Shown here in pieces: positions 3,217 to 64,000 of a DNA stretch of 64,000 bases. Origin of the DNA: Deltaproteobacteria bacterium (GTDB taxonomy: Bacteria > Myxococcota_A > UBA796 > SXON01); contig CANKTH010000002.1 of assembly GCA_947486185.1 (NCBI GenBank), positions 47,946 through 111,945 of the forward strand. The letters are read 5' to 3'. The notes beneath the pieces are model-generated. The model did not search any database. It had not been told where the DNA came from and worked only from the letters and a program-made list of their open reading frames with translations. The first letter of the stretch is position 1, and each line of letters begins with the position of its first letter. The position numbers and the translations under genes are program-made.

Positions 3217-3225
3217 ATCGAACCC

Positions 3226-20732: not shown

Positions 20733-21968
20733 ATGACCCCCGGGATCCTGCCGCTGTTGGTGATCATCTTCAGCTGTCAGCACACCTCACGGACGCCGTC
20801 CCCGTCCGGCGCGCGGTTGGCCGCAAGCGAAGGCGCTCGTCAGGATCTTGCGGCAACGCTGGATTTTTTCGCGACCCGCCCTGAGTACGAGCGTGCATTC
20901 GGCACCGGACTCCTGCTCCCGTCCGGGCTGAGCGACCTCTCCGCCGCGACCTGCGCCGCGTGCCACGCGGCGATCGCGGACGATTGGCACCGCTCCGTCC
21001 ACGCCCAGGCCTGGATCGATCCGCAGTTCCAGGCCGAGATCCAGAAGTCAGACAATCGTTGGTTATGCCTGAATTGTCACACGCCACTCTTGACTCAACA
21101 AGAGTACTGGCCACGCGGGCTCGTCGAAAACGATGTCGAACGCCCGGTCCTCACCCCCAACCAGCTCTTCAACCCCAGCCTCCGCGAGGAGGGCATCACC
21201 TGTGTCGCCTGCCACCTGCGCGAGCGGGACGGCGTAGCGACGTTAGCTGGGCCGGGGCTCAGCGATCCGAGCCTGGCGCCGCACGCGGTTGAGGTCGATC
21301 CGGACCTGCGTAGCGGCCGGCACTGCGAGCGCTGCCACGACGTCCAGGCCACCTACGCGGGGAAATCGTTCATCTGCACCTTCGAGACGGGCGCCGAGCT
21401 GCGGGCCGGCCCGTGGGACGATCCGCCAGACAACGCGACGTGCGTCAGCTGCCACATGCCCCCGGTCGAGCGCCCCGCGGCGACCGGCGGCCCGGACCGG
21501 ACCGTCGCTCAGCACTTCTGGCGCGGCGCGGGCATCCCCAAGTTGGAGGGTCGTTATCCACCCGAATCGGCAAATCCGCATGGCCTGAACCTCAGCGCCC
21601 GGTTCGCCGGGGACGATCTGATCCTGGAGCTTGAGAACGTACGGGCCGGCCACAAGCTGCCCACCGGCGATCCCGAGCGCTGGATCCAGGTCGACGTGCT
21701 GCCCTTCGCGGAGGACACCGGCCTGGGTCCTGCGCTCACCACCCGCATCGGTCAGGAGTGGGAGTGGACCACCCCACCCGTACGCCGCTCGGACAACCGA
21801 TTGTCGCCCAAGGAGCGCCGAGAGGTGACCGTGACCCTCCCGCCGGGCACCACGCGGGTCGAGATCGTGGCCGGCTCCTACCGGATCTCCGAGGAGAACG
21901 CTGCGTTCCACCATCTGGGCGATTATCCGCGCGGGGTGGAGACCCACCGTATCCAGCTGGCCCGTTGA
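20733..21968 (+). CDS. Pentaheme c-type cytochrome lipoprotein (cytochrome c554-like multiheme family)
   Basis: Start at ATG 20733 (MTPGILPLLVIIFSCQ, lipobox). Five CXXCH motifs: CAACH, CLNCH, CVACH, CERCH, CVSCH. Confidence 0.8.
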   Translation: MTPGILPLLVIIFSCQHTSRTPSPSGARLAASEGARQDLAATLDFFATRPEYERAFGTGLLLPSGLSDLSAATCAACHAAIADDWHRSVHAQAWIDPQFQAEIQKSDNRWLCLNCHTPLLTQQEYWPRGLVENDVERPVLTPNQLFNPSLREEGITCVACHLRERDGVATLAGPGLSDPSLAPHAVEVDPDLRSGRHCERCHDVQATYAGKSFICTFETGAELRAGPWDDPPDNATCVSCHMPPVERPAATGGPDRTVAQHFWRGAGIPKLEGRYPPESANPHGLNLSARFAGDDLILELENVRAGHKLPTGDPERWIQVDVLPFAEDTGLGPALTTRIGQEWEWTTPPVRRSDNRLSPKERREVTVTLPPGTTRVEIVAGSYRISEENAAFHHLGDYPRGVETHRIQLAR

Positions 21969-25101: not shown

Positions 25102-25143
25102 CGTCGGGTCGTCAGGCCCCGGAGCGATGGTTAGGCACAAGGA

Positions 25144-25476
25144 ATGAACCTCATCCTCTGTTTTTCGTTGCTCGCCTTTGCCGACATCCCACCCTCGGAC
25201 ACGCAGACGTGCCGTAGCGCCAAAGCCGGGGACTCCTGCCGCACCGACGAGGGGAAATCCGGCGCATGCACCGAGCAGACCTGCTCTCGGCTGGACTACA
25301 GCAACGGCACGCCGCCGACGAGCGTCAGCGAGCCTTGCCTCGTCTGCGACGCCGACGCGAAACCCTCCAACGCCAGCAAGAAAGCCGAAAACGGCTGCTC
25401 GACCGTCGGCGCCGCCGGAGCGAGCGCGCTCGGTCTCGCGTTGCTCCTGGCCGCGGGCATCACGCGGCGCGCCTGA
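25144..25476 (+). CDS. Small secreted Cys-containing protein with MYXO-CTERM-type C-terminal sorting signal
   Basis: Signal peptide MNLILCFSLLAFA. C-terminus NGCSTVGAAGASALGLALLLAAGITRRA, i.e. GC followed by a hydrophobic helix and a basic end. Confidence 0.65.
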   Translation: MNLILCFSLLAFADIPPSDTQTCRSAKAGDSCRTDEGKSGACTEQTCSRLDYSNGTPPTSVSEPCLVCDADAKPSNASKKAENGCSTVGAAGASALGLALLLAAGITRRA

Positions 25477-25733: not shown

Positions 25734-25979
25734 TCAGCTCGGCTCATTCACAAGGATGTTCCGAATCGTGTCCTTGAGGTGCAGCCGCCGGATCTTCAAG
25801 GCCTTCAGCGCGTCGTCGGACATCGGCTCGATATCCTCCTCGGCACGGCAGATCTGCTTGTCGACGTCTTCGTACTCGTGAAAGTACCGGACGGCGTGGT
25901 GGTCAGCGAGCTTCAGGGCGTGAATCTTGGCCCGATGCTCGGGGAACTCGTTGATGAGGGCGTGATGTTCGACGTGCAT
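25734..25979 (-). CDS. YdcH / DUF465 family protein
   Basis: HHALINEFPEHRAKIHALKLADHHAVRYFHEYEDVDKQI matches the DUF465 pattern. Confidence 0.75.
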   Translation of the reverse strand: MHVEHHALINEFPEHRAKIHALKLADHHAVRYFHEYEDVDKQICRAEEDIEPMSDDALKALKIRRLHLKDTIRNILVNEPS

Positions 25980-26126
25980 GCCGCTCCTCTACCTGTAGGA
26001 CCCGCACCCCGCTATCGCAGTAGAGTGCCGTCCGGTGGCATGGTCGCCGCGTTCGACGCGCCTCCGGTACGCATAACGGCGGTGTCGCAGGTGCCGACGC
26101 GCTACGTTGCTGCCCTCGGGGGTGTG

Positions 26127-27542
26127 ATGAGTTATTTTTCGTCCTTCGGCGTCAGCCCGGAGCTGATACGCGGCGCGCTCGGCGTGGCCCTCTCCCGCGG
26201 GGCCGACGACGCGGACCTCTACTTCGAGCACCTGGAGACCAACTCAGTCTCCCTGTCCGACAACAAGGTCAACCGGGCGTCCACCCACGTGGATCTGGGT
26301 GTCGGCGTCCGCGTTCGGGTAGGCGACCAGGTGGGGTACGCCTATTCCGAAGATTTGAGCGCTGCCGCGATCCAACGCGCCGCAGCGATGGCCGCCGAGA
26401 TCGCCGCGTTTGGCAAAGCCAGCCGACCCGTGGAGGAGCCCGGCGCCGCGCGCCGCCTCGCGGACCGGTACCCCGAGCGGGTGCCCTGGGACACCGTGCC
26501 GATGGAGACGCGCGTACAGATGGTCCGCGCGTGGGAGCGGCGTAGTTTTGAGCTTGACCCGCGCATCCGTAAGGTCGAGGTCTCGCTCATCGACGCGGAG
26601 AAGCGCATCCTGATCGCCCGGCCCGACGGGAGGCTGATCGAAGACCACCTCCCCATGACCCGCGCCCACATCGTCTGCACCGCCGAGCAGGCCGGCCGCC
26701 GGGAGACCGGTAGCTACAACCTTGCGAGTCGGCAGGGAATCGACTTCTACAGCCCCGATCGCGTAGAGCGCCTGTGCCAGAGCGCGGTGGAGGGGACGGC
26801 TATCCTGTTTGAAGCAGGTAAAGCGCCGAACGGGGAGATGACGGTGGTGTTGGGCGCCGGCTCCTCGGGCATCCTGCTCCACGAGGCGATCGGCCACGGC
26901 CTGGAAGCCGACTTCAACCGCAAAGGCGTCAGCATCTACGCTGATCGTCTTGGGCAACGTATCGCGCCCCCTGGGGTCACGGTCGTGGACGACGGCACCC
27001 TGCCTTATGCGCGCGGCACGATCAACAACGACGACGAGGGCAACCCCACCGAGCGCACGGTGCTCATCGAAGACGGCATTCTTCGCAGCTACCTCCACGA
27101 CGAGATCTCCGCGCGACATTACGGGGTGAACCCAACCGGCTCGGGCCGACGCGAGAGCTTTCGGCACGTCGTGCTGCCGCGTATGCGCGCCACGTACATG
27201 GAGCGCGGGGGCTATAGCGCCGAGGAGGTGATCGGCTCGGTCAAACGCGGCATCTACTGCAAGACCTTCAGCAACGGTCAGGTGCAGATCGGGGCGGGGG
27301 ATTTCGCCTTCTACGTCAAACAAGGCTTCCTGATCGAGGACGGCAAGCTCACGCAGCCGATCAAGGACGTCAACCTCATCGGGAACGGGCCGGCCGTGCT
27401 CGCCGCGGTGGAGATGGTGGCGGACGATCTGCAGATCGACGAGGGTGGCTGGACCTGCGGCAAGGACGGGCAGAGCGTGCCCGTCTCTCAAGGAATGCCC
27501 ACGGTCAAGGTAGGGAAGCTATCGGTAGGAGGGCAGGGCTGA
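26127..27542 (+). CDS. tldD: Metalloprotease TldD
   Basis: Start at ATG 26127 (MSYFSSFGVSPELI). HEAIGHGLEADF motif. GDFAFYV...GNG C-terminal pattern. Confidence 0.9.
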   Translation: MSYFSSFGVSPELIRGALGVALSRGADDADLYFEHLETNSVSLSDNKVNRASTHVDLGVGVRVRVGDQVGYAYSEDLSAAAIQRAAAMAAEIAAFGKASRPVEEPGAARRLADRYPERVPWDTVPMETRVQMVRAWERRSFELDPRIRKVEVSLIDAEKRILIARPDGRLIEDHLPMTRAHIVCTAEQAGRRETGSYNLASRQGIDFYSPDRVERLCQSAVEGTAILFEAGKAPNGEMTVVLGAGSSGILLHEAIGHGLEADFNRKGVSIYADRLGQRIAPPGVTVVDDGTLPYARGTINNDDEGNPTERTVLIEDGILRSYLHDEISARHYGVNPTGSGRRESFRHVVLPRMRATYMERGGYSAEEVIGSVKRGIYCKTFSNGQVQIGAGDFAFYVKQGFLIEDGKLTQPIKDVNLIGNGPAVLAAVEMVADDLQIDEGGWTCGKDGQSVPVSQGMPTVKVGKLSVGGQG

Positions 27543-28864
27543 TGGACCTCTTCGCGCTCGCAGAACGTGTGCTTGGCGCGGCCCGCGCCGCCGGCGCCGA
27601 CGAGGTCGCCATCGGGGTCGGGCGCTCGTCCGAAGCGTCGTTGATGCGCCGGAATCACCAGATCGAGCAGGCCACCCAGGCGGAGAGCCTGACCCTCGCG
27701 CTCACGCTTCTGGTCGATGACCGCTATTCATCGCATTCTACCTCAGATCTTCGGCCGGATGCCCTGAGTCGCTTCGTGGAGCGGGCGATCGCCGCGACCC
27801 GGGTCCTGGAGCCCGAACCCGAGCGGCGGCAGCCCGACCTCGCCCTTTGCGGGCGGGGAGTCGACGAGGCCACCCTCGACCAGTACGATCCGGCGAGCAC
27901 GACCATCACGGGCAGCGAGCGTCGGGAGCTCACCGAGCAGATCGAGGCCGCGGTAGACGCGCTGCCGGACCGGAGCCGCGTCAAGAGCGCGACGATCCAC
28001 CTGGGAGACAGCTTCGGCGAGTCGGTGCGACTGATGAGCAACGGCTTTTCGGGCAGCCACACGTGGTCGGGCTTTGGCCTGGGGGTCGAGATGACCCTCG
28101 AAGAGCCCGGCGGGCGCCGCCCCGAAGCGATGTCCTGGGCATCGGCCATCCACCGCGCCGACCTCCCACCCTTGCCCTGGTTTGCCACCGAGGCCTGGCG
28201 CAAAGCTGAACGCCGCATCGGGAGCGGGCCGGCACCTTCAGGGCGTTACACCATGATCCTCGAGGCGAACGCGGCGCCGAGGATCCTCTCCGTGCTCGGC
28301 GGCCCGCTGTCGGGGTCAGAGCTCCACCAGGGCCGGAGCTGCCTCGCGGGCCGGCTCGACCAGGTAATCGGGTCCTCACAATTCACGCTCCTGGACGAGC
28401 CTTTTATTCCCCGGGGCCTGGGATCCCGCCCCTACGACGGGGAGGGTCTACGCGCCGCGCCGATGCCGGTGGTCGCCGGTGGCGTGCTCAAGAACTACTA
28501 CATCAGCACCTACTACGGTCGAAAGCTGGGAATGGCGCCGACCAGCGGCAGTCGCTCCAACTGGGTCGTGCCCCCGGGCACGCGTGACCTCGAGGCGCTG
28601 ATCGCCGGCGTGGATCGTGGCATTCTGGTGGCCGGCTTCCTCGGCGGAAACTCCAACGGGCTCAGCGGCGACTTCAGCTTCGGGGTGCACGGGCAGCTCA
28701 TCGAAGGCGGGAAGATCGTGGGGCGAGTGTCAGAGATGAACGTCTCCGGCAATATCACCGACATCTTCCAGCACTTTGTTGAGGCTGGCAGCGACGTCTG
28801 GCGCTACTCGGGTGTGCGGACGCCGTCGTTGGTGTTCGCCGACGTCAACTTCTCGGGGAGCTGA
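27542..28864 (+). CDS. pmbA: Metalloprotease PmbA/TldE
   Basis: ATGA-type overlap with tldD. PmbA_TldD fold with GDFSFGVHGQLIEGGK near the C-terminus. Confidence 0.85.
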   Translation: MDLFALAERVLGAARAAGADEVAIGVGRSSEASLMRRNHQIEQATQAESLTLALTLLVDDRYSSHSTSDLRPDALSRFVERAIAATRVLEPEPERRQPDLALCGRGVDEATLDQYDPASTTITGSERRELTEQIEAAVDALPDRSRVKSATIHLGDSFGESVRLMSNGFSGSHTWSGFGLGVEMTLEEPGGRRPEAMSWASAIHRADLPPLPWFATEAWRKAERRIGSGPAPSGRYTMILEANAAPRILSVLGGPLSGSELHQGRSCLAGRLDQVIGSSQFTLLDEPFIPRGLGSRPYDGEGLRAAPMPVVAGGVLKNYYISTYYGRKLGMAPTSGSRSNWVVPPGTRDLEALIAGVDRGILVAGFLGGNSNGLSGDFSFGVHGQLIEGGKIVGRVSEMNVSGNITDIFQHFVEAGSDVWRYSGVRTPSLVFADVNFSGS

Positions 28865-42219: not shown

Positions 42220-43845
42220 ATGCTGAGTGCCGGCCAGACCGTCGAACGATACCGCGTAGTCCGTTTTATCGGCGAAGGCGGAATGGGTCAGGTCTTCCTG
42301 GTCGAGCATGAGCACCTTCATCAGTATTTTGCCCTCAAGCTGATCAACCGTAGCCACCCCGAGATCGTCCGGCGCGCCCGACTCGAGGCACAGACCCAGG
42401 CCAGCCTCAAACACCCCAACATCGTCGGCCTGAGTGACTTCCTGATGCTGGGCCCTTCGCCCTGTATGATCATGGAGTACGTCGAGGGGGTGACCCTGCA
42501 CGAGTGGATCAGCCACCACTTTGGCGCGCCTCCGCTGGATCAGGCCGAGCTCCTCTTTCGCGGGATCCTGGCTGGCGTCGAGACCGCCCACCAACGCGGG
42601 CTGGTGCACCGCGATCTCAAACCCGGCAACGTGCTGCTCGATCGGGAAGGTACGGCGAAAGTCGCCGATTTCGGCCTGGTGAAGGTGATGGGGGAGCTGG
42701 CGCGGTACACCACGGACGGCACGGTGGTTGGAACGCCCGGCTACATGGCGCCCGAGCAGGGTAGGGGCGCGACAACCGTGGACAAACGTACCGATGTCTA
42801 CGCGCTGGGCTGCATCTTCTACGAGATGCTCACGGGCCAGCCGCTCTTTTCGTCGTCCAGCCTGAAGTCGGCGCTCGCCGAGCAGCAGGCGCCGCTCGCA
42901 GCAGTTGCGGAGGCGCTTCCCCTTCACTTGAGCGAGGCGGTCCTGCGTTGCCTCGAGCAGGATCCCGCCGACCGTCCGGCCGACGCGACGGCGCTGCGTG
43001 AGATCCTGGGCTGGAGCCCGGGGCCCGTGATCGGCGGCGTGCCGATTCGGGAGCCAGAAGCTACCCGATCACACATCTCCAACGAGACTTATGCGCCTCC
43101 GCGGGGGGGCGGCACCGTCGCGGGGGGCACCGGGGTACCCCCCGACTCCCAAGTCAACAAAGGGGCGGATGTTCGGTTTATCTGGGCGGTGTCGGGCGCC
43201 TTCGTGGCGACCCTCGGGCTGCTCGCCGGAGCCTGGTTCGTATCGGCGCGGCTCTCCGTCGCGCCCCCACTCCCCGCCCCGGTGGTCGCCTCCCCAAACG
43301 TTACACCACTCCTCGGTTATCGCCCGATCGCGGACGAGCTCGTGTACGCGTTTGGCGCCGCGCCAGGGGGCCCCTGGGGCGAAGGTGTCGCCGTCGGTTG
43401 GGCGCCCGGGCCGGCGCGGAGCGTCGCGCTCCAGCCCGGCCTGGAGCTGGTGTCCGGCTACGAGGTCGAGTGGTTCACCGTGGTGGAACGCCATGACGTT
43501 CCGGAGGTCCTCCTGCCGTTGGCCGAGCCTCCCGTGATCGACGCCCCGGACCGCTTCGCCTGCGGCTTCGACGGGCTCCCGGCTTGCACCCGCGGCCGCC
43601 CTCCGCCGCCACCGACGCCACAGGGGGCCGGCACGCTCGACCTGCGAACCTGGCCCTACGCCCGAATCAGCGTTAATGGCAGGGAGATCGGGAGAAAAAC
43701 CCCCGCTGCCTTCGAGGTGCCCTCCGGGGTGCGACGGGTGCGCCTCACGGACAAGGACGGGGCGGTCCGCGAGCTCGACCTCAAGGTCCTGCCCAACACA
43801 ACAACGCGTTATTGTTGGAGCTTCGAGGACAACGACGAATGCTGA
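42220..43845 (+). CDS. Ser/Thr protein kinase with TM segment and C-terminal PEGA domain
   Basis: IGEGGMGQVF, ALK, HRDLKPGNVLL, DFGLVK, GTPGYMAPEQ. C-terminal ARISVNGREIGRKTPAAFEVPSGVRRVRL. Confidence 0.92.
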   Translation: MLSAGQTVERYRVVRFIGEGGMGQVFLVEHEHLHQYFALKLINRSHPEIVRRARLEAQTQASLKHPNIVGLSDFLMLGPSPCMIMEYVEGVTLHEWISHHFGAPPLDQAELLFRGILAGVETAHQRGLVHRDLKPGNVLLDREGTAKVADFGLVKVMGELARYTTDGTVVGTPGYMAPEQGRGATTVDKRTDVYALGCIFYEMLTGQPLFSSSSLKSALAEQQAPLAAVAEALPLHLSEAVLRCLEQDPADRPADATALREILGWSPGPVIGGVPIREPEATRSHISNETYAPPRGGGTVAGGTGVPPDSQVNKGADVRFIWAVSGAFVATLGLLAGAWFVSARLSVAPPLPAPVVASPNVTPLLGYRPIADELVYAFGAAPGGPWGEGVAVGWAPGPARSVALQPGLELVSGYEVEWFTVVERHDVPEVLLPLAEPPVIDAPDRFACGFDGLPACTRGRPPPPPTPQGAGTLDLRTWPYARISVNGREIGRKTPAAFEVPSGVRRVRLTDKDGAVRELDLKVLPNTTTRYCWSFEDNDEC

Positions 43846-45351: not shown

Positions 45352-46458
45352 ATGGGCTTCGGCCCCGATCTGCTCGCTCAAACCGACATCTCTCTCCTCC
45401 ACCCCGAGACCCGTGTCGCGCGTGTCGCTTTTCGCTCCCACGACCAGGTGTCCCTACTTCTTCCTCCTGAAAGCCCCAATCTGCCCCATGCGCCGGACTG
45501 CCCACGCGCGCGTCTCGCTCCCCGGATCCCCAACCTCGCAGACCCCCACGATCCCGACGCCGAGAGCGCCCACTCCGTCGTCGTTGGCGACTGGGTGCTC
45601 TGTCGGCTCGACCACGATCCTCCGTCGGTCAGCCACCGCTTCGGCCGCCGGAGCCTGCTTCGACGCCGAGATCCCGGCGGCACCGTGCAGCCGGTGGGCG
45701 CGAACCTCGACCTGGCCGTGGTCTGCATGGCGATGGGGCACGACCTCAACCTCCGGCGTTTTGAGCGTTGGTTGGCGGTGATCCGCGACGCGGGGGTGCC
45801 GGCGATGCTCCTCTTGACCAAAGCGGACGCGGGCGTCGATGTGGCGCCGACCATAGCCGCGTTCGAGGCCGTGAGCCAGGGCGTGCCCGTCCTGCCGGTG
45901 AGCGCAGCGGAGAACCGCGGCCGCGACGCGCTGATCTCCGCGCTGAAACCAGGGAGCACGATCGCGCTCCTCGGCGCCTCGGGGGTCGGAAAGTCCACCT
46001 TGATCAACTGGATTGCCGGGAGGGCGATCCAGGAGGTGGGCGAGGTCCGCTCGGGGGATGACCGCGGCCGGCACACGACCACCGCGCGCGAGCTGATCGC
46101 GGTCAACGTGCCGGGAGGGTTCGCCTGGATCCTTGACAATCCCGGCGTGCGACAAGTCGGCCCGGTAGATGCCACGAGCGTGGACGACACCTACCCCGAG
46201 GTGGTCACCGTGCTCCGGGCCTGCCGCTTCCGGGATTGCCGCCACAGCGGGGACCAGGGGTGCGCCGTGCCCCAGGCGCTGGACGACGGCCGCCTGGAGC
46301 CCGCGCGATGGCGCTCCTACCAGAAGCTCCAGCGCGAGCTCGCCTGGGCCGAAGATCGCGACGATCCTTCGGCGATGGCGACACGGCGCGCAGGATGGAA
46401 GAGGATCCATCAACAGGCGGCGGCCAGGAACCAGCTCCTGGGAAAGGGTCGCCGTTGA
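45352..46458 (+). CDS. rsgA: Ribosome small-subunit-dependent GTPase A
   Basis: Circularly permuted GTPase: LLTKAD, GASGVGKSTLIN, GRHTTT, DNPGVRQ. Zn knuckle CRFRDCRHSGDQGCAV. Confidence 0.9.
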   Translation: MGFGPDLLAQTDISLLHPETRVARVAFRSHDQVSLLLPPESPNLPHAPDCPRARLAPRIPNLADPHDPDAESAHSVVVGDWVLCRLDHDPPSVSHRFGRRSLLRRRDPGGTVQPVGANLDLAVVCMAMGHDLNLRRFERWLAVIRDAGVPAMLLLTKADAGVDVAPTIAAFEAVSQGVPVLPVSAAENRGRDALISALKPGSTIALLGASGVGKSTLINWIAGRAIQEVGEVRSGDDRGRHTTTARELIAVNVPGGFAWILDNPGVRQVGPVDATSVDDTYPEVVTVLRACRFRDCRHSGDQGCAVPQALDDGRLEPARWRSYQKLQRELAWAEDRDDPSAMATRRAGWKRIHQQAAARNQLLGKGRR

Positions 46459-50319: not shown

Positions 50320-50478
50320 TCAACCTCCAGGTCGATCGTATACCTCAACCTGCCCGCCGACCGCTTTGGACTTTTGGCGCTCTGGTCCAGGTGAGCGGAG
50401 CAGAGACCTTTCGTGACAGTAGGGCTTCGACGGACGACGGATAGCGACAGCCCGGCAAAGCTCGGATACAGCGAGGCG

Positions 50479-50838
50479 GTGCGACTTCTCGTGCTCCTCC
50501 TGGCTCTCCACCTCGGCTGCGCCCACCGGGTGCGGGTGGTGAGCGTGCCGCCGGGAGCGTTCATCTACCGCGACGATGCGCGGATCGGCACGGCGCCGAT
50601 GGACCTGCGGGTGCGGATGTTCAGCAACCCGGAGCTGTCATTACGGTTGCCCGGCTACCGTCAGCTGACCTTCGAGCCGGGGCGGAGGATCAGTGGTCCG
50701 CGCAGCTTCTGGCTGGACCTCCGTCGCCTTCGGTGGGGTCGGGCCCTGGGGTTGAGCACATCCACAACGCTCCGGGTGCTGCTGGTGCCCGACCACGCAA
50801 CCGTCGCGCGGGAAGGCGCACGGGCCGCCGCGCCGTGA
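50479..50838 (+). CDS. PEGA-domain lipoprotein
   Basis: GTG 50479 with GAGG upstream. VRLLVLLLALHLGC lipobox. VRVVSVPPGAFIYRDDARIGTAPMDLRV...LRLPGYRQLTFEP. Confidence 0.7.
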   Translation: MRLLVLLLALHLGCAHRVRVVSVPPGAFIYRDDARIGTAPMDLRVRMFSNPELSLRLPGYRQLTFEPGRRISGPRSFWLDLRRLRWGRALGLSTSTTLRVLLVPDHATVAREGARAAAP

Positions 50839-56391: not shown

Positions 56392-57251
56392 GCGCCGCGC
56401 CCGCGACCCGTCGCGGCGGAGGCCTGAGCCTCGCGACGAGGGTGCCTCGGATATTGATGGGTCTCTCCCTACTCTTTGCGTGGGCGTCACTCTCCAGCGT
56501 CACCCGGGTCAGCGGGCTCCCCCACGCCTACGGGCCTTCGGCCTGGCTGCCGCTGGCCCCGCTCACCAGCGGGCCAGGCTTCGCTCTGGTGAGCGTGGTT
56601 TTTGCCGGCGCCTGCCTCGCCTTCGTGCTGGGACGGCGCGCGCCGGTCGCTGCCGCGCTCATCGTTGCGCTGCTCGTGCTCATGAGCCACCTGCAAAGCG
56701 CACAATGGGCGCCGGACGCTCACCACGCCAACCGCGCGGTGGTGTTGCCCGGCGCTGCGATGGTGGCCTGGTGGCTCGCGCGTTGGCGCAGCCGGGGCCA
56801 GGGCGTCGGCGCCGCCGATGCCGCGGGGGTCGAGGCGGCCTGTGGCATCACCGCGGCGTGCTACAGCTTCGCGGGCTGGTCAAAGGTGAGCGGCAGCGGC
56901 TTGGAGTGGGCCAGCGGCCCCAACCTCGCGATGCACCTGATGGTGCACAGCTACGGCAGCGTCGAGCCGCTCCGCGCACTTCGGCAGGGGCTCGCGGAGC
57001 TGCCTGCCTTGTGCGCCTTCTTCGGACACGGCACCCTGCTCATCGAGTGCAGCTTCGGGCTTTTCCTGGTGCCACGGCTCCGGCGTCTCTACGCGACTGC
57101 GGCGGTCCTCATGCACCTCGGGATCGCCCTGGTGATGGGCCTCCACCACTACGACTGGATGCTCATGGTCGCGGGGCTCGGCTTCAGCTCGCCATCCACC
57201 CGCGGAGCTGCTTCTGCATCCGGCTCACCGCCTGGCCCCGGAGCTGGCTGA
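56388..57251 (+). CDS. Hypothetical polytopic membrane protein
   Basis: Start at ATG 56388 (ATGA overlap). About 7 hydrophobic spans. The 3' end overlaps the convergent fliA by 68 nt. Confidence 0.55.
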   Translation: MSAAPATRRGGGLSLATRVPRILMGLSLLFAWASLSSVTRVSGLPHAYGPSAWLPLAPLTSGPGFALVSVVFAGACLAFVLGRRAPVAAALIVALLVLMSHLQSAQWAPDAHHANRAVVLPGAAMVAWWLARWRSRGQGVGAADAAGVEAACGITAACYSFAGWSKVSGSGLEWASGPNLAMHLMVHSYGSVEPLRALRQGLAELPALCAFFGHGTLLIECSFGLFLVPRLRRLYATAAVLMHLGIALVMGLHHYDWMLMVAGLGFSSPSTRGAASASGSPPGPGAG

Positions 57252-57966
57252 CGCGGCTCTCGCACACGTTCAGGCGCTCACAGATCTGGGTGTACTTCAG
57301 GCCCTGCTGAAAATAAAGCACGATGACATCGCGCTCGGTCGGGGGGAGCCGGGTGATGGCGTGGCCCATGTCGTCGTCCCGCTCACGCTCCAGCCAACGA
57401 TCCACCGCGTTGGCCTCATCCGCCGCGAGGACCTCCGCGGCGCTTCGGGCGTCGTGTACGCTGGCCGGCGCATCGAGCGCGACCGGGCGGTTCACCACGG
57501 CGCCCGTCACCATCTCGTCGTAGGCGGTAGGGCTGAGCTTCAACGCAGTGACCATTTCGGCGCGGTCGGGGTCACGACCGAGGCGGTCGCGGAGGCGGGC
57601 GCGGGTACGCTCCAAGAGCGCGTTGCGTTGACGCACCGCGCGCGGCACCCAGTCCGCCGAACGGAGGCTGTCCACCATCGCGCCACGAATTCGGATCTCA
57701 GCGAACGCGCCGAACGGCACGCCGCGGTCTGGATCGAAACGATCCACCGCTTCAATGAGCCCGACGTACCCAGCGCTCACCAGCTCATCGAGCTCCGCTC
57801 GCCCGGAAAACTGGCGGACCAAGCGACTCGCGATGATGCGGACCAGGGGCATGTGGGCGACGATCAACGCCTCCCGCTCCGTCGTTGTCGGCCTACGCCG
57901 CCCAGCCCGCCGCTCGGAGAGCGGGACTAAACGAACGCAGTTACTCCCTTCGGAATATGTCGCCAT
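57184..57966 (-). CDS. fliA: Flagellar sigma factor FliA (sigma-28, FliA/WhiG family)
   Basis: ATG 57966 with GGAGGG RBS. Region 2 LVSAGYVGLIEAVDRFDPDRGVPFGAFAEIRIRGAMVD. Region 4 LKYTQICERLNVCESRVSQLRGQAVSRM. Confidence 0.88.
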   Translation of the reverse strand: MATYSEGSNCVRLVPLSERRAGRRRPTTTEREALIVAHMPLVRIIASRLVRQFSGRAELDELVSAGYVGLIEAVDRFDPDRGVPFGAFAEIRIRGAMVDSLRSADWVPRAVRQRNALLERTRARLRDRLGRDPDRAEMVTALKLSPTAYDEMVTGAVVNRPVALDAPASVHDARSAAEVLAADEANAVDRWLERERDDDMGHAITRLPPTERDVIVLYFQQGLKYTQICERLNVCESRVSQLRGQAVSRMQKQLRGWMAS

Positions 57967-58028
57967 CTCGACCCTCCGATCCTGCACACAACCCAACGGA
58001 CCATCAGAAGCGTGTTCTGTCGGGGTTG

Positions 58029-58057
58029 ATATTACGTCGGTCGGGCGGCGGGATCAA
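58029..58057 (-). promoter_or_regulatory. Candidate sigma-70-type promoter for fliA in the relatively AT-rich flhB-fliA spacer
   Basis: On the minus strand, TTGATC (58057-58052), 17-nt spacer, TAATAT (58034-58029). About 60 nt upstream of the fliA ATG. Confidence 0.35.
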
Positions 58058-58099
58058 TCTTTGAGAGAAAGTTTCCAGAAATTCTCGCTGTACAGCGTC

Positions 58100-59173
58100 T
58101 CAGGTCGAACGTAGCTTCTTACGCCGGTAAACCGCTGCCAGGACCCTGGCGACCGCTCCGTAGAACTCCGGCGGCACGGCTCCGCCCACCCGCCCCTTGA
58201 CCGCAAGCGCGCGCGCAAGCGCCCGATTCTCAACGATGGGCACGTCATTTCGAGCCGCAATGGTACGAATCTGAAGGGCAACGAGATCAAATCCGCGCGC
58301 GAGGATCACCGGCGCCGCGTTCTCGGCCTTCCGATACCTGAGGGCAACCGCGTAGTGGGTCGGGTTGGTGACCACCACGTCCGCGCGAGCCACGTCCTCT
58401 ATGCGGCGCCGGCTCGTGAACAGGCGAGCCATCTGACGACGACGCTGCTTGATCAGCGGGTCGCCTTCCGTATCTTTGTGCTCCTCCTTCACCTCTTGAC
58501 GTGTCATCATCAACTGTTGGTTCATGCGCCAGATCTGGTACAGATAATCGCCAATCCCCAGGAGCACTGTCATGGGGATTGCGCGCTCGAAGACGAGGCG
58601 AATCAGGCGGCCCAGAAAAATGAGCTGGGAGCCCGCCGGCCAGGAAGATGACGCCGGGAGGAGGTGAAGCTCGCTCTCAATCGCCGAATACACCGCCCAG
58701 GCCACGACGACGCCGACCATGACGCTCTTGAGGAGCCCCACCCACGGTTGCGCCGAGAGCATCTGGCCCTGGAGGTTCTTGATCGGATCGATACGTTCGA
58801 ACTTGGGTTCGAGCGCGTCTGTGGTGTAGTTGAACTGCGTCATCGCGAGGCCGAGGATCACAGCGGCGACGCTGCCGGGCAGGAGGAAGGCCAACAGTCC
58901 CGGCCCCACGGCCCACATGCCGGTGTACATCAAGCTCGGCAGGTCCCCCGCCTCGATCTCGCCGCTGATGCCACGCTGAAAACAAAAGCGGCTGAAACCG
59001 ACCATGTTCTCCAGCATCGACGGCGCCACCAGCGCGCCGACGATCACCGCCGACGCCATCGCTACCGACGCGGTGAGCTCGCGAGAGCCGGCGACGCGGC
59101 CCTCTTTCCGCGACTTCTCGATCTTCCGTTCTGAAGCCGGCTCGGTCTTTTCAGCGCCGTCGTTCTCCGCCAT
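58100..59173 (-). CDS. flhB: Flagellar export switch protein FlhB
   Basis: EKTEPASERKIEKSRKEGRVAGSRELT N-terminus, four TM spans, and the autocleavage motif VVTNPTHYAVALRY. Confidence 0.92.
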   Translation of the reverse strand: MAENDGAEKTEPASERKIEKSRKEGRVAGSRELTASVAMASAVIVGALVAPSMLENMVGFSRFCFQRGISGEIEAGDLPSLMYTGMWAVGPGLLAFLLPGSVAAVILGLAMTQFNYTTDALEPKFERIDPIKNLQGQMLSAQPWVGLLKSVMVGVVVAWAVYSAIESELHLLPASSSWPAGSQLIFLGRLIRLVFERAIPMTVLLGIGDYLYQIWRMNQQLMMTRQEVKEEHKDTEGDPLIKQRRRQMARLFTSRRRIEDVARADVVVTNPTHYAVALRYRKAENAAPVILARGFDLVALQIRTIAARNDVPIVENRALARALAVKGRVGGAVPPEFYGAVARVLAAVYRRKKLRST

Positions 59174-59175
59174 CG

Positions 59176-59934
59176 TCAGCGCGCAAGATCGGCGAGGACC
59201 AGGATAGCGGCGACCGACTCAGGCAGGCTGTAGAGCCAGGCCGCGAGCATCGGCTGTAGCGCGATGAGTAGGAGTGCGAGGGATGCGACGACCGTAAATG
59301 AAGGTCCTACCGCAAAAAAGAGCTGAAGACCGGGTGCCATGCGGCTCAGGATGGAGAGCCCCAGGTTCACCAGGAACACAAAGATTACCAGCGGCCCCGC
59401 CAGCGTGATGCCGAGCGCCACCGCCACGCCCGTCGCGGGCACCAACACCTCGCCCGCCGATGCGACGTTGTGAATGGTGCCAGGGGGGAGGATCGCAAAA
59501 GACTCGGCGAGCGCCTGAATGCACTGGAGGTGGAGGCCGGCCCCAAAAAAAACGCCGGTGCCCAGCCAGCTCGCCAGGAGGCCAAGCGCCCCAGGCTGAG
59601 AGAGGGTGAGGGGATCGAGCATCGACCCGATGTGCAGGCCCCCCTGGGTCGACAGGAGCTCCGCCGCCGAGCCCAGCGAGCCGAAGGCGATCGAGACCAC
59701 CGTGCCCATCGCGATGCCCAAGATGAACTCGCTGCCCACCCCCGCCACCAGCTGGCCCAGCGTCTCGGGTACACGGGTGTCCGCGCCCGCGGGCAGGAGC
59801 ACGAGCGTCAACGGCGCGGCGGCGCCCAGGCGCGCGAGGCGCGGCACGATGCCCGAGCCCAACGCAGGCATGGTCATCAGGAGGCCGCTCACCCGTGCAA
59901 ACATGAAGATCCCGGCCGCTACCGTGGCGATCAC
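59176..59934 (-). CDS. fliR: Flagellar export apparatus protein FliR
   Basis: GTG 59934 overlaps the fliQ stop (GTGA). Polytopic: FARVSGLLMTMPALGS..., typical of FliR/SctT. Confidence 0.85.
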   Translation of the reverse strand: MIATVAAGIFMFARVSGLLMTMPALGSGIVPRLARLGAAAPLTLVLLPAGADTRVPETLGQLVAGVGSEFILGIAMGTVVSIAFGSLGSAAELLSTQGGLHIGSMLDPLTLSQPGALGLLASWLGTGVFFGAGLHLQCIQALAESFAILPPGTIHNVASAGEVLVPATGVAVALGITLAGPLVIFVFLVNLGLSILSRMAPGLQLFFAVGPSFTVVASLALLLIALQPMLAAWLYSLPESVAAILVLADLAR

Positions 59935-60200
59935 CGCGATGCCTCCGGGATCTGCCTGAAACAACGTTCGCCGAAATTCACGAGCTCGCGCGCCATCCAC
60001 CCCGAAGCGAGCGCCAGCACGAGGCTGATGACCAGGAGTTTGGGCAAGAAGGTGAGCGTCGCCTCGTGCACCTGGGTCACGGCCTGAAACAGGGAGACCA
60101 CGGTTCCGACCACCATGATCGCGATGAGCGCCGGGCCGCCGACCATGAGCGTCACCAGCAGGGCCTCTCGCCCGAGCCGCGTCGCCTCCATCACCGTCAT
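59931..60200 (-). CDS. fliQ: Flagellar export apparatus protein FliQ
   Basis: 89 aa. GREALLVTLMVGGPALIAIMVVGTVVSLFQAVTQVHEATLTFLPKL. Confidence 0.9.
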   Translation of the reverse strand: MTVMEATRLGREALLVTLMVGGPALIAIMVVGTVVSLFQAVTQVHEATLTFLPKLLVISLVLALASGWMARELVNFGERCFRQIPEASR

Positions 60201-60955
60201 CGGGCGATACCCGCGGCCAGGTCACGGATCAGGAGCCCCCACCCGTCCATCAGCACGAAAACCAGGAGCTTGAACGGCAACGACACCACCACCGGGGGCA
60301 GCATCATCATGCCCATCCCCAAGAGGATGCTGCTGATGACGATATCGACGACCAGGAACGGGATGAACACATAGATGCTGATGACAAATGCTGTTTCGAG
60401 CTCGGACAACACGTAGGCGCTCACCACCACGGCCGTAGGTAGCTCGTCGAGCGTGTCGGGGCGCTCGATGTTGCCGACGTCCATGATCGTGGCCATGTCG
60501 GCGCGTCGGGTGTTCGCCAGCATGAACTCCCGCATCGGTGCGAGCGTCGTCGTCAGCGCCTCCTTCGCTTCGGTCTGCCCGTCGAGGAAGGGCACCACCC
60601 CATCGCTCCAGGCCGTGTCGAGCACCGGCTGCATCACCAGGAGGGTGAGGAAGAGGGAGACCCCGACGATCACTTGGTTGGGCGGCGATTGTTGAAGCCC
60701 GAGCGCCTGGCGGAGGAGCGAGAGCACCACCACGAAGCGGACGAACGGGGTCATCACCACGAGGAGCGCGGGCAAGAAGGAGAGCCCGGTGAGGAACAGG
60801 ATCAACCGCACCGCGGAGTTCACGCCCACGGGGGTGTCGCCGCCGACCACCTCGGTCAGCAACGCCGCCGCGTCGCCACCTGCCGCGACGGCGGCGGCCG
60901 GGTCTGGGGCGACGTCCTGTGCGAACGCCAGGAAGATGAACAACAAAAACGCCAT
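60197..60955 (-). CDS. fliP: Flagellar export apparatus protein FliP
   Basis: Signal-like N-terminus. LSLLRQALGLQQSPPNQV and LGMGMMMLPPVVVSLPFKLLVFVLMDGW motifs. Confidence 0.92.
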   Translation of the reverse strand: MAFLLFIFLAFAQDVAPDPAAAVAAGGDAAALLTEVVGGDTPVGVNSAVRLILFLTGLSFLPALLVVMTPFVRFVVVLSLLRQALGLQQSPPNQVIVGVSLFLTLLVMQPVLDTAWSDGVVPFLDGQTEAKEALTTTLAPMREFMLANTRRADMATIMDVGNIERPDTLDELPTAVVVSAYVLSELETAFVISIYVFIPFLVVDIVISSILLGMGMMMLPPVVVSLPFKLLVFVLMDGWGLLIRDLAAGIAR

Positions 60956-61404
60956 CAGTGACCCTGAGCCTCCGGCGAGGGGTCCCGCTCGGCAAGCGCT
61001 TCTTCGAGCACCCCAGCGGTCAGCCGAAGGCCAAGGTCGGCGACCAGGGTCGGCGCCGAGCCGCCGGTCCCGATGAGCAGGCGCCGACGTTCCCCATCCG
61101 ACTCCACCACCTCCACGAGCACCAGCGCGCTCCGATCCCCGAGCGACTCACGCCCGAGCACCACAATGGGCCGCGCCTCATCGGCGATCTTCGGTTGTTG
61201 GCGTTTGAGGCGCCAGGCCGCGTACAGGCCCAACGCACCCAGCAGGGCCGGCGGGATCAGGCGCCAGCCGCCCAGGGTGGCGGTAGGCTCGGCAGGCGCC
61301 GCAGCGACGCTCTCGGAGCCGCCCAGATCGTCCGCGGGAAAAAGCCGCTCGTAGGTGCCGTCGGCGGCGAATGCCATCCCGACCGCCAGGAGCAGACCGC
61401 TCAC
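60955..61404 (-). CDS. fliO: FliO-like flagellar biosynthesis protein
   Basis: Position between fliN and fliP. Single TM (LIPPALLGALGLYAAWRLKRQ) followed by a small soluble domain. GTGA and ATGA overlaps with both neighbours. Confidence 0.6.
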   Translation of the reverse strand: MSGLLLAVGMAFAADGTYERLFPADDLGGSESVAAAPAEPTATLGGWRLIPPALLGALGLYAAWRLKRQQPKIADEARPIVVLGRESLGDRSALVLVEVVESDGERRRLLIGTGGSAPTLVADLGLRLTAGVLEEALAERDPSPEAQGH

Positions 61405-61664
61405 CCGGCGTGCCGCGCGGGTCGGCCTCCGACCACCTCAATGATCCGCAGCGCAACACGATCCTTCACGACGATCATCTCACCCCGCGCGAGCACCTGC
61501 CCGCCGACCACGAGGTTGACCGGCTCCGACTGGCCGTGATCCAGCTCCACGACGTCATCCGGTTCGAGGCTCGCCAAGCGACGAATCGTCATCTTGGCTC
61601 GCCCAAGCTCCACGACTACCGATACCGGGATATCCTGGAGGAAGCTCACGCCCGAGTCCGACAT
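61401..61664 (-). CDS. fliN: Flagellar motor switch protein FliN (short, SpoA domain only)
   Basis: IPVSVVVELGRAKMTIRRLASLEPDDVVELDHGQSEPVNLVVGGQVLARGEMIVVKDRVALRIIEV. Confidence 0.9.
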   Translation of the reverse strand: MSDSGVSFLQDIPVSVVVELGRAKMTIRRLASLEPDDVVELDHGQSEPVNLVVGGQVLARGEMIVVKDRVALRIIEVVGGRPARHAG

Positions 61665-61686
61665 TCAGTTCACCGCTCCCGTGGGC

Positions 61687-62568
61687 CTATCGGTCGGGCG
61701 CCCGCGAACTTGAGTCCGAATTTGCGCGGCGCTCAACGCGGAAGGAGCGCTGGCCCCCGGTAATTCCTGGACGTCCGATAAAAGCCGGCTTGCCGCCCAC
61801 TCTTCCTTCGACCTCGCCGATCACACCCAGCGGGATTTCGTCTCCCGGGGCAAGGCGTTCCAGCGTACCAAAGGGCAGATCGAGCCGCGCGAGCTCCACC
61901 ACCAGCTCCAGCTCTACCGGCATCACGCGGTCGAACTTGGGCACCCGCGACGTCGGGTTGGCGGTCTCGGTCGCGCTGACATCTGGGGTGACCACCACCG
62001 CTGGTAGCGCGACGAACAAACGGCAGGTGCCCGTCTCCTCGGAGACCGCCAAGGTCGCGCAAAGGACAATCTGCTGCAGGTCCATGCCCGCCAGGATCCG
62101 CGGTCCCGAGCCCGATTTCCCCTCAAGGAACCGCGGCGGAGGCCCGAGGACCCAGGCCCCGGCCAGCGCGTCCATCAACTCCCGGCAGAGGCGCTGGCTC
62201 ACCGTCTTCTCCACCGTAGTCGGCGCCCGGGGGGTCCAGAGCGCAGGCGCCGCATCCCCCTCGCCAAAAAGACGGCCCATGAGGAAGGCGATCAGGTTGC
62301 CTTCGATCGCGATCACCCCGACGTGCCCGCCCTGGGCCATCGGCCAGGTGCTCCAGATCACGGCATCGGCGGCTTCGGTGTTCACCAGGGACTCGAGCTC
62401 GACAGCCCGCACTCCGACCAGCTCGATCGGCGCGTCTGCGCCCGTACGCGTCGCAAGCTGGGCCCGCACCCGGCGCAAGGCGAGCTCGAAACACTCCGCC
62501 ATTGGCGGCACGCTGACCCGCCCGTGACGTTCGAGATCGGCGCTACGGCTGGCGGCCGCGCGGTTCAC
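61687..62568 (-). CDS. fliM: Flagellar motor switch protein FliM (no recognisable N-terminal CheY-P binding peptide)
   Basis: GTG 62568 overlaps the fliL stop (GTGA). Middle domain LIAFLMGRLFGEG. C-terminal SpoA-like VELELVVELARLDLPFGTLERLAPGDEIPLG. Confidence 0.8.
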   Translation of the reverse strand: MNRAAASRSADLERHGRVSVPPMAECFELALRRVRAQLATRTGADAPIELVGVRAVELESLVNTEAADAVIWSTWPMAQGGHVGVIAIEGNLIAFLMGRLFGEGDAAPALWTPRAPTTVEKTVSQRLCRELMDALAGAWVLGPPPRFLEGKSGSGPRILAGMDLQQIVLCATLAVSEETGTCRLFVALPAVVVTPDVSATETANPTSRVPKFDRVMPVELELVVELARLDLPFGTLERLAPGDEIPLGVIGEVEGRVGGKPAFIGRPGITGGQRSFRVERRANSDSSSRAPDR

Positions 62569-63143
62569 TGGACGACGAACTGCGTGAAGTAGATGTGCAT
62601 CACCGTGTTCGGCGCCACGGCACCGTTGACGCGGGCGAGCAACTCGTCGCGGAGGCGGGTCTTGCCGTCGGTACCCTCGATCTCGCTCCAAGTGTAGTCA
62701 CTCGCCGCGGTGATCACCGCGTCACGCACCTGCGCCATGCGCGCGTTGAGCGCGTCGGCCACCTTTCCGGCCGCCTCCACCTGAACTTCGAGCCGGAGCA
62801 CCCGGCCTCCGCCGCTGCCTCTGAGGTTCACCGTGAAGGTGCCCAGGTTGACCACGCTCGGACCCTCGGCGACCGCCTTGCCTCCCGCTGCCGGGGCCGC
62901 CGCCCCATGGGCACCGCCCGCCGCAGCCTCGCCGCCCTCAGGGGCCGCCGCGGCCTCCTCCGCCGCGCCTTCTTCGACCGCCGGAGCCGCGTCTTCATCG
63001 GCCGCCTCAGTGCCGCCGCCGCCAAAACCCAGGAACCAGGCGCCCGCGAAACCGCCGCCCAACCCCAGGAGTACTGCGATGACCGGAAGGATCACCGAAA
63101 TCGCGCGGCGCCCGCCGGCCCCCCCATCTGCCTGTTCGCTCAT
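62565..63143 (-). CDS. fliL: Flagellar basal-body-associated protein FliL with Ala/Glu/Gly-rich linker
   Basis: ATG 63143. TM ISVILPVIAVLLGLGGGFAGAWF. C-terminus LGTFTVNLRG...LRLEVQVEA...MAQVRDAVI...LRDELLARVN...IYFTQFVVQ. Confidence 0.85.
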   Translation of the reverse strand: MSEQADGGAGGRRAISVILPVIAVLLGLGGGFAGAWFLGFGGGGTEAADEDAAPAVEEGAAEEAAAAPEGGEAAAGGAHGAAAPAAGGKAVAEGPSVVNLGTFTVNLRGSGGGRVLRLEVQVEAAGKVADALNARMAQVRDAVITAASDYTWSEIEGTDGKTRLRDELLARVNGAVAPNTVMHIYFTQFVVQ

Positions 63144-63172
63144 GAAACCTGCTCCGGCGGTCCGCGACCGTG

Positions 63173-63200
63173 TTCTCGGTCGCCACCCCACAAAGGTTTA
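63173..63200 (-). promoter_or_regulatory. Candidate sigma-28 (FliA)-type promoter upstream of fliL
   Basis: On the minus strand, TAAA (63200-63197), 16-nt spacer, ACCGAGAA (63180-63173). The enteric consensus is TAAA-N15-GCCGATAA. The -10 element matches 6 of 8 positions. Confidence 0.3.
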
Positions 63201-63236
63201 ATCGGATCTCGCGGCTCCGGCCCGCGACCCCCTGCT

Positions 63237-64000
63237 CTAGACCATGTTGAGCAGGGCCTGGAGGGACTCATCCGCCGTCGTGACCACCTTGGCGCTCGCC
63301 TGGTAGGAGCGCTGGGCGGTGATCATGTTGATGAATTGATCCTCGAGATCCACGTTGCTCTTCTCCAGCGCGTTCCCCACGATGTCCCCGCGGCCATCCG
63401 TGCCCGCGACGTCCACCGCAGGCTCGCCCGACGCGATCGACTTCTCGAACAAGGTACCCCCCGCACGGATCAGCCCCGACTCCGACTTGAAGGTGGCGAG
63501 CAGGACCTGACCGATCGTCAGGTCTTCGCCATTGGTGTAAGAGGCGATAAGGATGCCGTTGTCGCCAATAGCCACGCTCGAAAGATTACCGGTAGACCGG
63601 CCATCTTGACCGATCGCCGAGACCGAGGACTCCGAGCCGCCCATGATCAGCGCGCCGTCGGTAGCGACGCCGGCGATGTCGATGCCGAAGTCGAAGACTA
63701 CCGCGGGCGGGGCAGCGGCCTGGAAGGTCCAGCCCGCGGTGTCCGTCTGGGTGAAGGCGGTGAGCTCGCCCGCGGTGTCGAAGGTGACCGTGCCGGTGGC
63801 GATCTCGAAGGCGTCCCCGGCCGTGGCGCTGAAGGCGACGCCGGCGGGGTCGAAGGCCTCGGTCGCGTCGACGAGGGAGCGCCAGGTCCAGTCAGTGTTA
63901 TTGACCCGTTCGAACAGGATCGTGACCTCGTGGCCCAAGCCGAGGCTGTCGTAGACCGTGGTGCTCGTGCTGAAGTCGGCCGCGTCACCCGCCTCAATCA
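63237..64000 (-). CDS. flgE: Flagellar hook protein FlgE, C-terminal part (5' end lies beyond the window)
   Basis: The frame stays open upstream of the track's TTG at 63938 through to base 64000 (…TTVYDSLGLGHEVTILFERVN). C-terminus GNALEKSNVDLEDQFINMITAQRSYQASAKVVTTADESLQALLNMV. Its position upstream of fliL fits flgE rather than flgG. Confidence 0.7.
   Translation of the reverse strand, partial: IEAGDAADFSTSTTVYDSLGLGHEVTILFERVNNTDWTWRSLVDATEAFDPAGVAFSATAGDAFEIATGTVTFDTAGELTAFTQTDTAGWTFQAAAPPAVVFDFGIDIAGVATDGALIMGGSESSVSAIGQDGRSTGNLSSVAIGDNGILIASYTNGEDLTIGQVLLATFKSESGLIRAGGTLFEKSIASGEPAVDVAGTDGRGDIVGNALEKSNVDLEDQFINMITAQRSYQASAKVVTTADESLQALLNMV

Follow-up and report, generated by a model that had tools for sequence, protein, structure and literature searches.

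The 64,000-nucleotide stretch of contig CANKTH010000002.1 analyzed here (hereafter the window) ends in a run of flagellar genes that is probably part of an intact, vertically inherited, large flagellar operon, located on the chromosome of an uncultured, high-G+C and probably deep Myxococcota-related lineage. The genes are unbroken and closely spaced, they match the remainder of the window in composition, and their order recurs in related metagenomic genomes. One of them encodes a short FliM that lacks the N-terminal peptide where the chemotaxis regulator CheY normally docks.

The flagellar gene run and its upstream continuation

Ten unbroken open reading frames (ORFs) occupy positions 57184 to 64000 on the reverse strand in the order flgE (3′ part)-fliL-fliM-fliN-fliO-fliP-fliQ-fliR-flhB-fliA, an assignment based on the ORF list and on matches to Pfam and NCBIfam profiles (Table 1). 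The original prediction had read these genes as uninterrupted on one strand, with a FlhB that retains its NPTH autocleavage site, and both observations are correct. Indeed, the cleavage site is found within the stretch VVTNPTHYAVAL, and NPTH is invariant among the window protein and its 38 closest homologues (P0122-P0159), as it is in 41 of 41 members of the FlhB clade described below.

Table 1. Positions and properties of the flagellar genes of the window and of the short fliM genes of three relatives.
Feature	Position	Strand	Properties
flgE (3′ part)	63237-64000	-	C-terminal 253 of 443 codons, gene runs past window end; Pfam FlgE_D2 (E=1e-14), Flg_bbr_C (E=4e-17)
fliL	62565-63143	-	192 aa, ATG at 63143, ORF extensible to 63191; Pfam FliL (E=9e-22)
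fliM (short form)	61687-62568	-	293 aa, GTG start, 4-nt overlap with fliL stop
fliN	61401-61664	-	87 aa, SpoA domain only; Pfam FliMN_C (E=9e-23)
fliO	60955-61404	-	149 aa, one transmembrane helix, divergent; identified by position between fliN and fliP and by weak matches
fliP	60197-60955	-	252 aa; Pfam FliP (E=2e-70)
fliQ	59931-60200	-	89 aa; Pfam Bac_export_3 (E=2e-26)
fliR	59176-59934	-	252 aa (also on contig L002), GTG start; Pfam Bac_export_1 (E=5e-40)
flhB	58100-59173	-	357 aa, NPTH autocleavage site; Pfam Bac_export_2 (E=1e-100)
flhB-fliA spacer	57967-58099	-	locally A+T-richer
fliA (sigma-28)	57184-57966	-	260 aa from ATG 57966 with GGAGG ahead, ORF extensible to TTG 57996
short fliM, relative L088	6644-7528
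short fliM, relative L090	907-1755
short fliM, relative L100	5497-6375

Neighboring genes overlap by 1 to 4 nt or are separated by gaps of 2 to 22 nt, with the exception of the spacer between flhB and fliA. The ATG that follows GGAGG is most likely the start codon of fliA, and the spacer then measures 133 nt (103 nt if counted to the TTG). This spacer possibly contains a promoter of fliA's own. A consensus scan of it found no sigma-70-like site, and alignment with the relatives revealed no conserved motif upstream of fliA. A sigma-28-like match in the spacer is loose and too weak to be claimed as a promoter.

Several of the assignments are firm by the standards of the NCBIfam models. FliP (TIGR01103, 244 bits; cut-off 217.45) and FliQ (TIGR01402, 90.7 bits; cut-off 88.9) pass their cut-offs, as does FliA with the FliA/WhiG model TIGR02479 (196.6 bits; cut-off 189.6). 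The latter protein also contains sigma-70 regions 2, 3 and 4 as defined by Pfam (E=2.4e-15, 1.1e-5 and 1.6e-10), and FliP carries a GMGMMMLPP loop. FliL matches the NCBIfam FliL models in addition to the Pfam family, and its gene has the same length of 192 codons on two further contigs, L001 and L002. FliM is matched by Pfam FliMN_C (E=3e-12) and weakly by Pfam FliM (E=1e-3), whereas the matches of FliO to Pfam FliO (E=1.3e-3) and TIGR03500 (E=5e-4) are both below cut-off.

Components such as these are shared with non-flagellar type III secretion systems (T3SSs), and the locus might in principle encode such a system, as Myxococcus xanthus does. This species has two non-flagellar T3SSs, and even FliO homologues form part of them (PMC12248157). 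The models for SctQ, SctR, SctS, SctT and SctU likewise detect proteins of the window. The flagellar model outscores its Sct counterpart for every shared component, however, by 74 bits (TIGR02480) versus 62.5 for FliN and SctQ, 244 versus 164.8 for FliP and SctR, 90.7 versus 77.2 for FliQ and SctS, 120.6 (TIGR01400) versus 79.0 for FliR and SctT (both below cut-off), and 309.8 (TIGR00328) versus 256 for FlhB and SctU. Moreover, the operon includes FlgE, FlgD, FliL, FliG, TIGR02530 and FliA, and genes for a secretin, a needle or a translocon are absent from it. This gene content refutes the secretion-system explanation, to which we assign a negligible probability.

FlgD, FliG and TIGR02530 are encoded beyond the window boundary, on a Logan contig from run ERR4405442 (L001). 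This contig is 100% identical to window positions 60287 to 64000 (3.7 kb) and continues for another 7,664 nt upstream, where the genes are ordered fliF (3′ end)-fliG-fliH-fliI-fliJ-flbB-like ORF-ORF in the fliK position-flgD-TIGR02530-flgE. The fliF, fliG, fliH, fliI and fliJ genes, which were among the components that had been proposed for a search, are thus found directly upstream. FliG exceeds the cut-off of TIGR00207 (227.3 versus 226.7 bits), keeps the EHPQ motif and preserves the charges of its C-terminal torque helix, RAAADVREELELGGPTRR. FliI scores 529.9 bits with the FliI/YscN model (cut-off 379.5), and the complete 443-aa FlgE scores 263 bits with the FlgE/FlgEFG subfamily model (cut-off 70). 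FliF domains and flgD are also present, and FliH and FliJ yield weak matches at their expected positions. In the 208-aa product of the ORF after fliJ, a signal or transmembrane segment is accompanied by a coiled coil and by weak similarity to MgtE_N and FlbB, the fliK position is occupied by a 463-aa ORF rich in Pro, Ala and Ser, and a TIGR02530 (“flg_new”) gene lies between flgD and flgE.

All 19 genes that can be read from the window and L001 combined are intact and translationally coupled, and pseudogene decay is rejected on these grounds. Furthermore, window sequence recurs at 100% identity in five contigs from other, independent assemblies, and the operon sequence is therefore no accident of assembly. 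The window locus would represent the distal two-fifths of a single operon that extends from fliF to flhB and is followed, after a short spacer, by fliA.

A short FliM without the EIDAL peptide

The one unusual component of the operon is the FliM protein encoded by the window. Its match to TIGR01397 (E=5e-17) reaches 61.9 bits versus a cut-off of 219.6, and the alignment begins only at profile position 58. The protein has no N-terminal LSQxEIDALL peptide. This peptide is the docking site for phosphorylated CheY (CheY-P), and FlhG docks there too. No EIDAL-like motif is present in any reading frame of the window, of L001 or of the relatives L088, L090 and L100, whereas the same motif is present in 23 of 27 FliM proteins from named reference operons that served as a control.

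A HMMER search of 1.84 billion representative sequences revealed 192 relatives of this FliM at E≤1e-3, 60 at E≤1e-10 and 15 at E≤1e-30. The best matches define a rare subfamily of approximately 60 clusters (at 50% identity), which apart from some fragments are mostly near full length at about 260 to 310 aa and align from their own N-termini. None of them carries LSQxEIDALL. Canonical FliM proteins, which are 320 to 350 aa long and in most cases contain the motif, appear only at E>1e-8 with an offset of 30 to 40 residues. The GGXG motif of FliM reads GEGD in the window and GEGD/GEG or GDG across the short subfamily. Look-ups of cluster members gave almost no organism names, and “Myxococcota bacterium”, obtained for one cluster (HNC94501.1 and two others at NCBI), is the only organism label recovered for this subfamily. 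The fact that the short form is kept across about 60 clusters indicates that it has been under purifying selection for a long time.

The operon, as read from the window and L001, contains no flhA, flhF, flhG, cheY or motAB, and none of flhA, flhF and flhG is located between flhB and fliA in the window or in any relative seen. Because FliM lacks the EIDAL peptide, FliN consists of nothing but a SpoA domain and cheY, flhF and flhG are missing from the operon, control of the classical CheY-P or FlhG type is improbable. From these sequence features, we infer that the motor is probably not switched by docking of CheY-P on FliM, and that FlhG probably does not set its number or position in the classical manner. 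A FliM without the EIDAL peptide is nevertheless no proof that chemotactic control is lacking.

Inheritance of the operon and position of its host

The order flgE-fliL-fliM-fliN-fliO-fliP-fliQ-fliR-flhB is conserved in at least four related metagenomic genomes or contigs. These are the cave genome GCA_975651895.1, whose FlhB is 60% identical to that of the window, the soil genome GCA_030685065.1 (46%), GCA_041447075.1 (45%) and the JGI contig 3300044611 (L100; 45%), and fliA is the next gene in all but the last. In L100, the P-ring gene flgI is positioned 9 kb downstream of flhB.

About 40 homologues of FlhB are 40 to 60% identical to the window protein, after which identities drop to 40% or less. 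Together with the window, P0122-P0159 group in a clade of 41 sequences that is recovered in all 200 of 200 neighbor-joining bootstraps, and the clade stands apart from all 27 named references from about a dozen phyla, which include Firmicutes, Spirochaetes, Desulfobacterota, SAR324/Lambdaproteobacteria, Alphaproteobacteria, Acidobacteriota, Nitrospinota and others. Likewise, a scan of named genomes, which relies on exact peptide words, returned FlhB matches of at most 38% identity (Firmicutes, Spirochaetes, Desulfobacterota, Alphaproteobacteria and others). In composition, too, the flagellar genes are indistinguishable from their surroundings. Third codon positions have a G+C content of 0.834 in the flagellar genes and 0.829 in the 28 other window genes, and the synonymous-codon fractions of the two groups are closely correlated (r=0.98). 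When non-flagellar genes were drawn at random, 33% of the resulting sets differed from the remaining genes as much as the flagellar set does, or more. Thus, the composition and FlhB comparisons suggested at the outset yielded a match to the rest of the window and a lineage-specific clade, respectively.

These findings bear directly on the possibility that the module was acquired recently from a flagellated donor by horizontal transfer, one of the three meanings offered in the original prediction. In favor of such a transfer, the genes that flank the operon downstream of fliA vary between relatives and one relative carries an ORF for a transposase fragment between flhB and fliA. In the window, no tRNA genes were found by scanning, and Pfam detects no mobile-element domains in the ORFs adjoining fliA. 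Codon usage, the deep lineage-specific FlhB clade and conserved synteny all disfavor horizontal acquisition, as does the overlap between the closest relatives identified by flagellar genes and by a housekeeping gene. We therefore consider recent transfer to be very improbable, and favor an operon that would have been inherited vertically within its lineage over a long time.

Housekeeping and flagellar genes give overlapping sets of relatives. The run ERR10479404, a cave metagenome (PMC12675795), contains both the FlhB relative of 60% identity and a 76% identical relative of the ETF-QO protein encoded at window positions 23059-24750. The two soil genomes with the closest named ETF-QO and FlhB are both labeled “Pseudomonadota bacterium”, and GCA_036676765.1 is the source of the best NCBI matches for both ETF-QO (77%) and RsgA (48%). 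A divergently oriented pair of lspA and the ETF-QO gene is common to the window and to genomes labeled Myxococcota and Pseudomonadota. In addition, genes with MopE repeats directly adjoin the operon in two relatives, and such repeats are also encoded in the window, which ties the operon to one kind of genome. In L090 and L100, MopE, FG-GAP and LTD proteins flank the flagellar operon.

We favor, with somewhat better than even confidence, a host that would belong to Myxococcota in the broad sense, including the GTDB phylum Myxococcota_A. The window has a G+C content of approximately 67%. ETF-QO has relatives of up to 82% identity, and its named matches most often carry the label “Myxococcota bacterium” (75%, 67%, 63% and 63%), which is also joint best at 75%. 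RsgA (45352-46458, + strand) is unusually divergent, its best match being only 48% identical. The difference from the 82% observed for ETF-QO suggests that the lineage is deep and thinly sampled. Myxobacterial hallmarks, which had been cited as a sign of the host's affiliation, are supported in part. The MopE repeats are robust (PF11617, 17 stretches, E=8e-111, in an 1824-aa ORF at 4766-10240, - strand). The MYXO-CTERM and PEGA assignments did not hold up to the same degree. The only MYXO-CTERM-type tail occurs in a 113-codon ORF (25135-25476, + strand) that ends in NGCSTVGAAGASALGLALLLAAGITRRA, with a Cys, a hydrophobic segment and basic residues, and that matches the MXAN_6652 family weakly (E=0.0016, 18 bits versus a cut-off of 200). 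PEGA matches in the kinase at 42220-43845 (15.3 bits) and in the ORF at 50395-50838 (20.0 bits) remain below the threshold of 20.8, the Myxo Cys-rich repeat (TIGR04201) is likewise below threshold, and NCBIfam scans for families specific to myxobacteria gave only matches of this kind. None of the MopE, MYXO-CTERM, Cys-rich repeat and PEGA features is exclusive to Myxococcota.

Several observations speak against our interpretation, first with regard to the host. Other named ETF-QO matches are labeled Pseudomonadota (75%), Deltaproteobacteria (71%), Oligoflexia (66%) and, in two cases, Alphaproteobacteria. No RsgA match carries a Myxococcota label; the named ones come from Phenylobacterium and Bdellovibrio, and those of full length come only from Bdellovibrio (36-37%). 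Placement in the phylum depends on the labels that submitters gave to metagenomic genomes and on soft domain hallmarks, and Rfam and tRNA scans located no rRNA or tRNA genes, nor were ribosomal-protein genes found, in the window. These data would be compatible with a host outside Myxococcota, in a neighboring, normally flagellated lineage of former deltaproteobacteria (such as Bdellovibrionota/Oligoflexia or an unnamed phylum), where the operon would be ordinary and the hallmarks shared or convergent. The prevailing ETF-QO label, the sole Myxococcota label of the short FliM subfamily, the 17-repeat MopE protein with its counterparts beside the operon in relatives, and the high G+C content argue in the other direction, and we regard a host of this type as possible but rather unlikely.

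The remaining adverse observations concern the operon itself. FliM, FliO, FliR and FlhB do not reach the equivalog cut-offs of NCBIfam, and these proteins are therefore divergent. Among the independent contigs, none spans the junction between fliA and the non-flagellar genes of the window. None of the genes for FlhA, MotA/MotB, rod, ring, filament (flagellin and flgK/L included) or chemotaxis proteins is present in the 71.6 kb covered by the window and L001, which thus encode only part of a flagellum. If these absences are taken together with the divergent components and the lost docking peptide of FliM, the operon could be viewed as a relic or as a repurposed device whose export apparatus, C-ring and hook serve secretion or another role without filament or stators, as in some endosymbionts. 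We consider this improbable for several reasons. All 19 readable genes are intact and coupled, hook and hook cap are retained, and neither FliL nor the charged torque helix of FliG would serve a purpose without stators. The sigma-28 gene stays next to the operon across the clade, FlgI (P ring) is encoded near the operon in a relative, and short FliM is kept in about 60 clusters. Moreover, flagellins are among the top-expressed genes across 35 metagenome-assembled genomes (MAGs) of seamount predators (PMC11937823). Among the three meanings originally offered, a flagellated Myxococcota-related lineage is thus favored over both horizontal acquisition and repurposing.

If such an operon indeed specifies a working flagellum, as we infer, then FliP, FliQ, FliR, FlhB and FliO would constitute the export gate inside the FliF ring, with FlhA encoded elsewhere, and FliH, FliI and FliJ would energize and load this gate. 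Export of FlgE hook subunits, assisted by the FlgD cap, would continue up to completion of the hook, whereupon FlhB, autocleaved at NPTH, would change its substrate specificity and sigma-28 (FliA) would switch on the late genes. FliG, FliM and FliN would make up the rotor and switch ring, in which the charges of FliG would receive torque from stators whose genes lie at other loci. The motor would turn in one direction only or would obey another input.

Textbook myxobacteria glide and have no flagella, and their gliding motor uses homologues of Mot/Tol-like stators. A bolder and more doubtful hypothesis, which we put forward tentatively, is that the uncultured Myxococcota-related clade has kept an ancestral single-operon flagellum with rewired control. 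FliM would have lost the peptide that serves CheY-P and FlhG alike, the operon would have shed flhF, flhG and cheY, and the resulting “chemotaxis-blind” motor may be steered by other means. Flagella would then be ancestral in the phylum and lost secondarily in cultured myxobacteria, and the clade would represent a surviving intermediate between a swimming and a gliding way of life. Well-resolved operons from deep relatives would show the machine of the swimming ancestor and the time of its loss, and the window locus is a clean example of this, recovered in independent assemblies and showing the anatomy of the full operon. The FliM proteins without a docking peptide for CheY and FlhG, a subfamily that has seldom been noticed, could likewise define a class of primary flagella that are not switched by chemotaxis.

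Other features of the window and its relatives were also observed. HDOD-domain genes and a PilZ gene reside beside flhB or fliA in two relatives, a hint at control of the motor by cyclic di-GMP that we regard as a lead only. The loci noted for these neighbors and for the transposase-fragment ORF are L088 11063-11645 and L098 1529-4959. The ORF with the 17 MopE stretches, which are repeats of a metal-binding type, encodes a giant secreted protein, and two genes for B12-binding radical SAM proteins are located directly downstream of it (1597-4776, - strand). On its other side (10271-13664, + strand) are genes for an ABC ATPase, an ABC-2 permease and a GldG-like ABC_transp_aux protein with DUF7088, which resemble the GldA/F/G gliding transporter of Bacteroidota. 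A multihaem cytochrome with an MtrC/MtrF-like domain (20322-21968, + strand) follows an S8 subtilase (19109-20716, + strand). The two ORFs overlap by approximately 400 nt in different frames, and one of the start codons needs to be refined; a similar cytochrome is encoded near the operon in L100. A TldD/PmbA metallopeptidase pair is present at 25779-28864 (+ strand), where TldD has an N-terminal extension of about 140 residues. Finally, the ORF at 2-1227 (- strand) runs past the start of the window, which holds its N-terminal 408 residues, contains a beta-ketoacyl synthase N-terminal domain and probably belongs to a polyketide or fatty-acid synthase gene.

Comparison with known flagellar and related systems

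The presence of flagella in uncultured relatives of myxobacteria is not a new idea, since flagellar genes in uncultured Myxococcota have been in the literature since 2021, and the element of surprise in the original prediction is accordingly weaker than stated. Flagellar assembly genes were described in uncultured Myxococcota genomes from Zodletone spring (bioRxiv 10.1101/2021.07.06.451402). From the Zhenbei seamount, 23 Myxococcota MAGs (UBA796, UBA9160, XYA-12 and other classes) and 12 Bdellovibrionota MAGs were reported, and flagellin genes are among the most highly expressed across the 35 genomes, with both phyla taken together (PMC11937823). A survey of FliO lists Myxococcota among the phyla with an AMIN-domain FliO (PMC12248157); the FliO of relative L100, which at 496 aa (6718-8208) carries a large extra domain compared with the 149 aa in the window, fits this domain-expanded type. 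A 2026 preprint that surveys flagella treats Myxococcota as a motile phylum. Like the window, the Zodletone and seamount sets comprise uncultured, Myxococcota-assigned genomes that encode flagellar assembly. These two papers mention the trait in passing only, without operon anatomy, phylogeny or the peculiarity of FliM, and our literature search found no paper that dissects a Myxococcota flagellar operon of this kind.

The closest structural parallels are found in Bacillus subtilis (fla/che operon) and Borrelia burgdorferi (flgB operon), where the genes are arranged fliF-G-H-I-J, ylxF/flbA, fliK, flgD, flgE, (flbD, motAB), fliL-M-N/Y, fliO/Z, fliP-Q-R, flhB, flhA, flhF, flhG ... sigD. The operon described here shares with this type the order from fliF to flhB, a flbB/ylxF-like ORF after fliJ, a Pro-rich ORF where fliK would be expected, a TIGR02530 gene adjoining flgD and flgE, and a terminal gene for sigma-28. 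It differs in that the 133-nt spacer takes the place of flhA, flhF and flhG between flhB and fliA, and in that motAB, cheY and other chemotaxis genes are missing. Furthermore, its FliN is a bare SpoA protein of 87 aa rather than a FliY, and its FliM is devoid of the EIDAL peptide.

A possible precedent for the latter feature is FliM2 of the lateral flagellar system of Shewanella putrefaciens, which is said to be insensitive to CheY. This protein reportedly resembles the window FliM in that the N-terminal CheY-P peptide is missing while the middle and SpoA domains are kept, such that unswitched rotation would be expected. FliM2, however, belongs to a second, laterally acquired gammaproteobacterial system, whereas the short FliM is part of a main operon of ancestral type and is found throughout its clade.

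The non-flagellar T3SS of M. xanthus, lastly, also has a gate of the FliP/Q/R/FlhB/FliO type within Myxococcota. Unlike that system, the operon described here encodes a hook, a hook cap, FliL, FliG and sigma-28.

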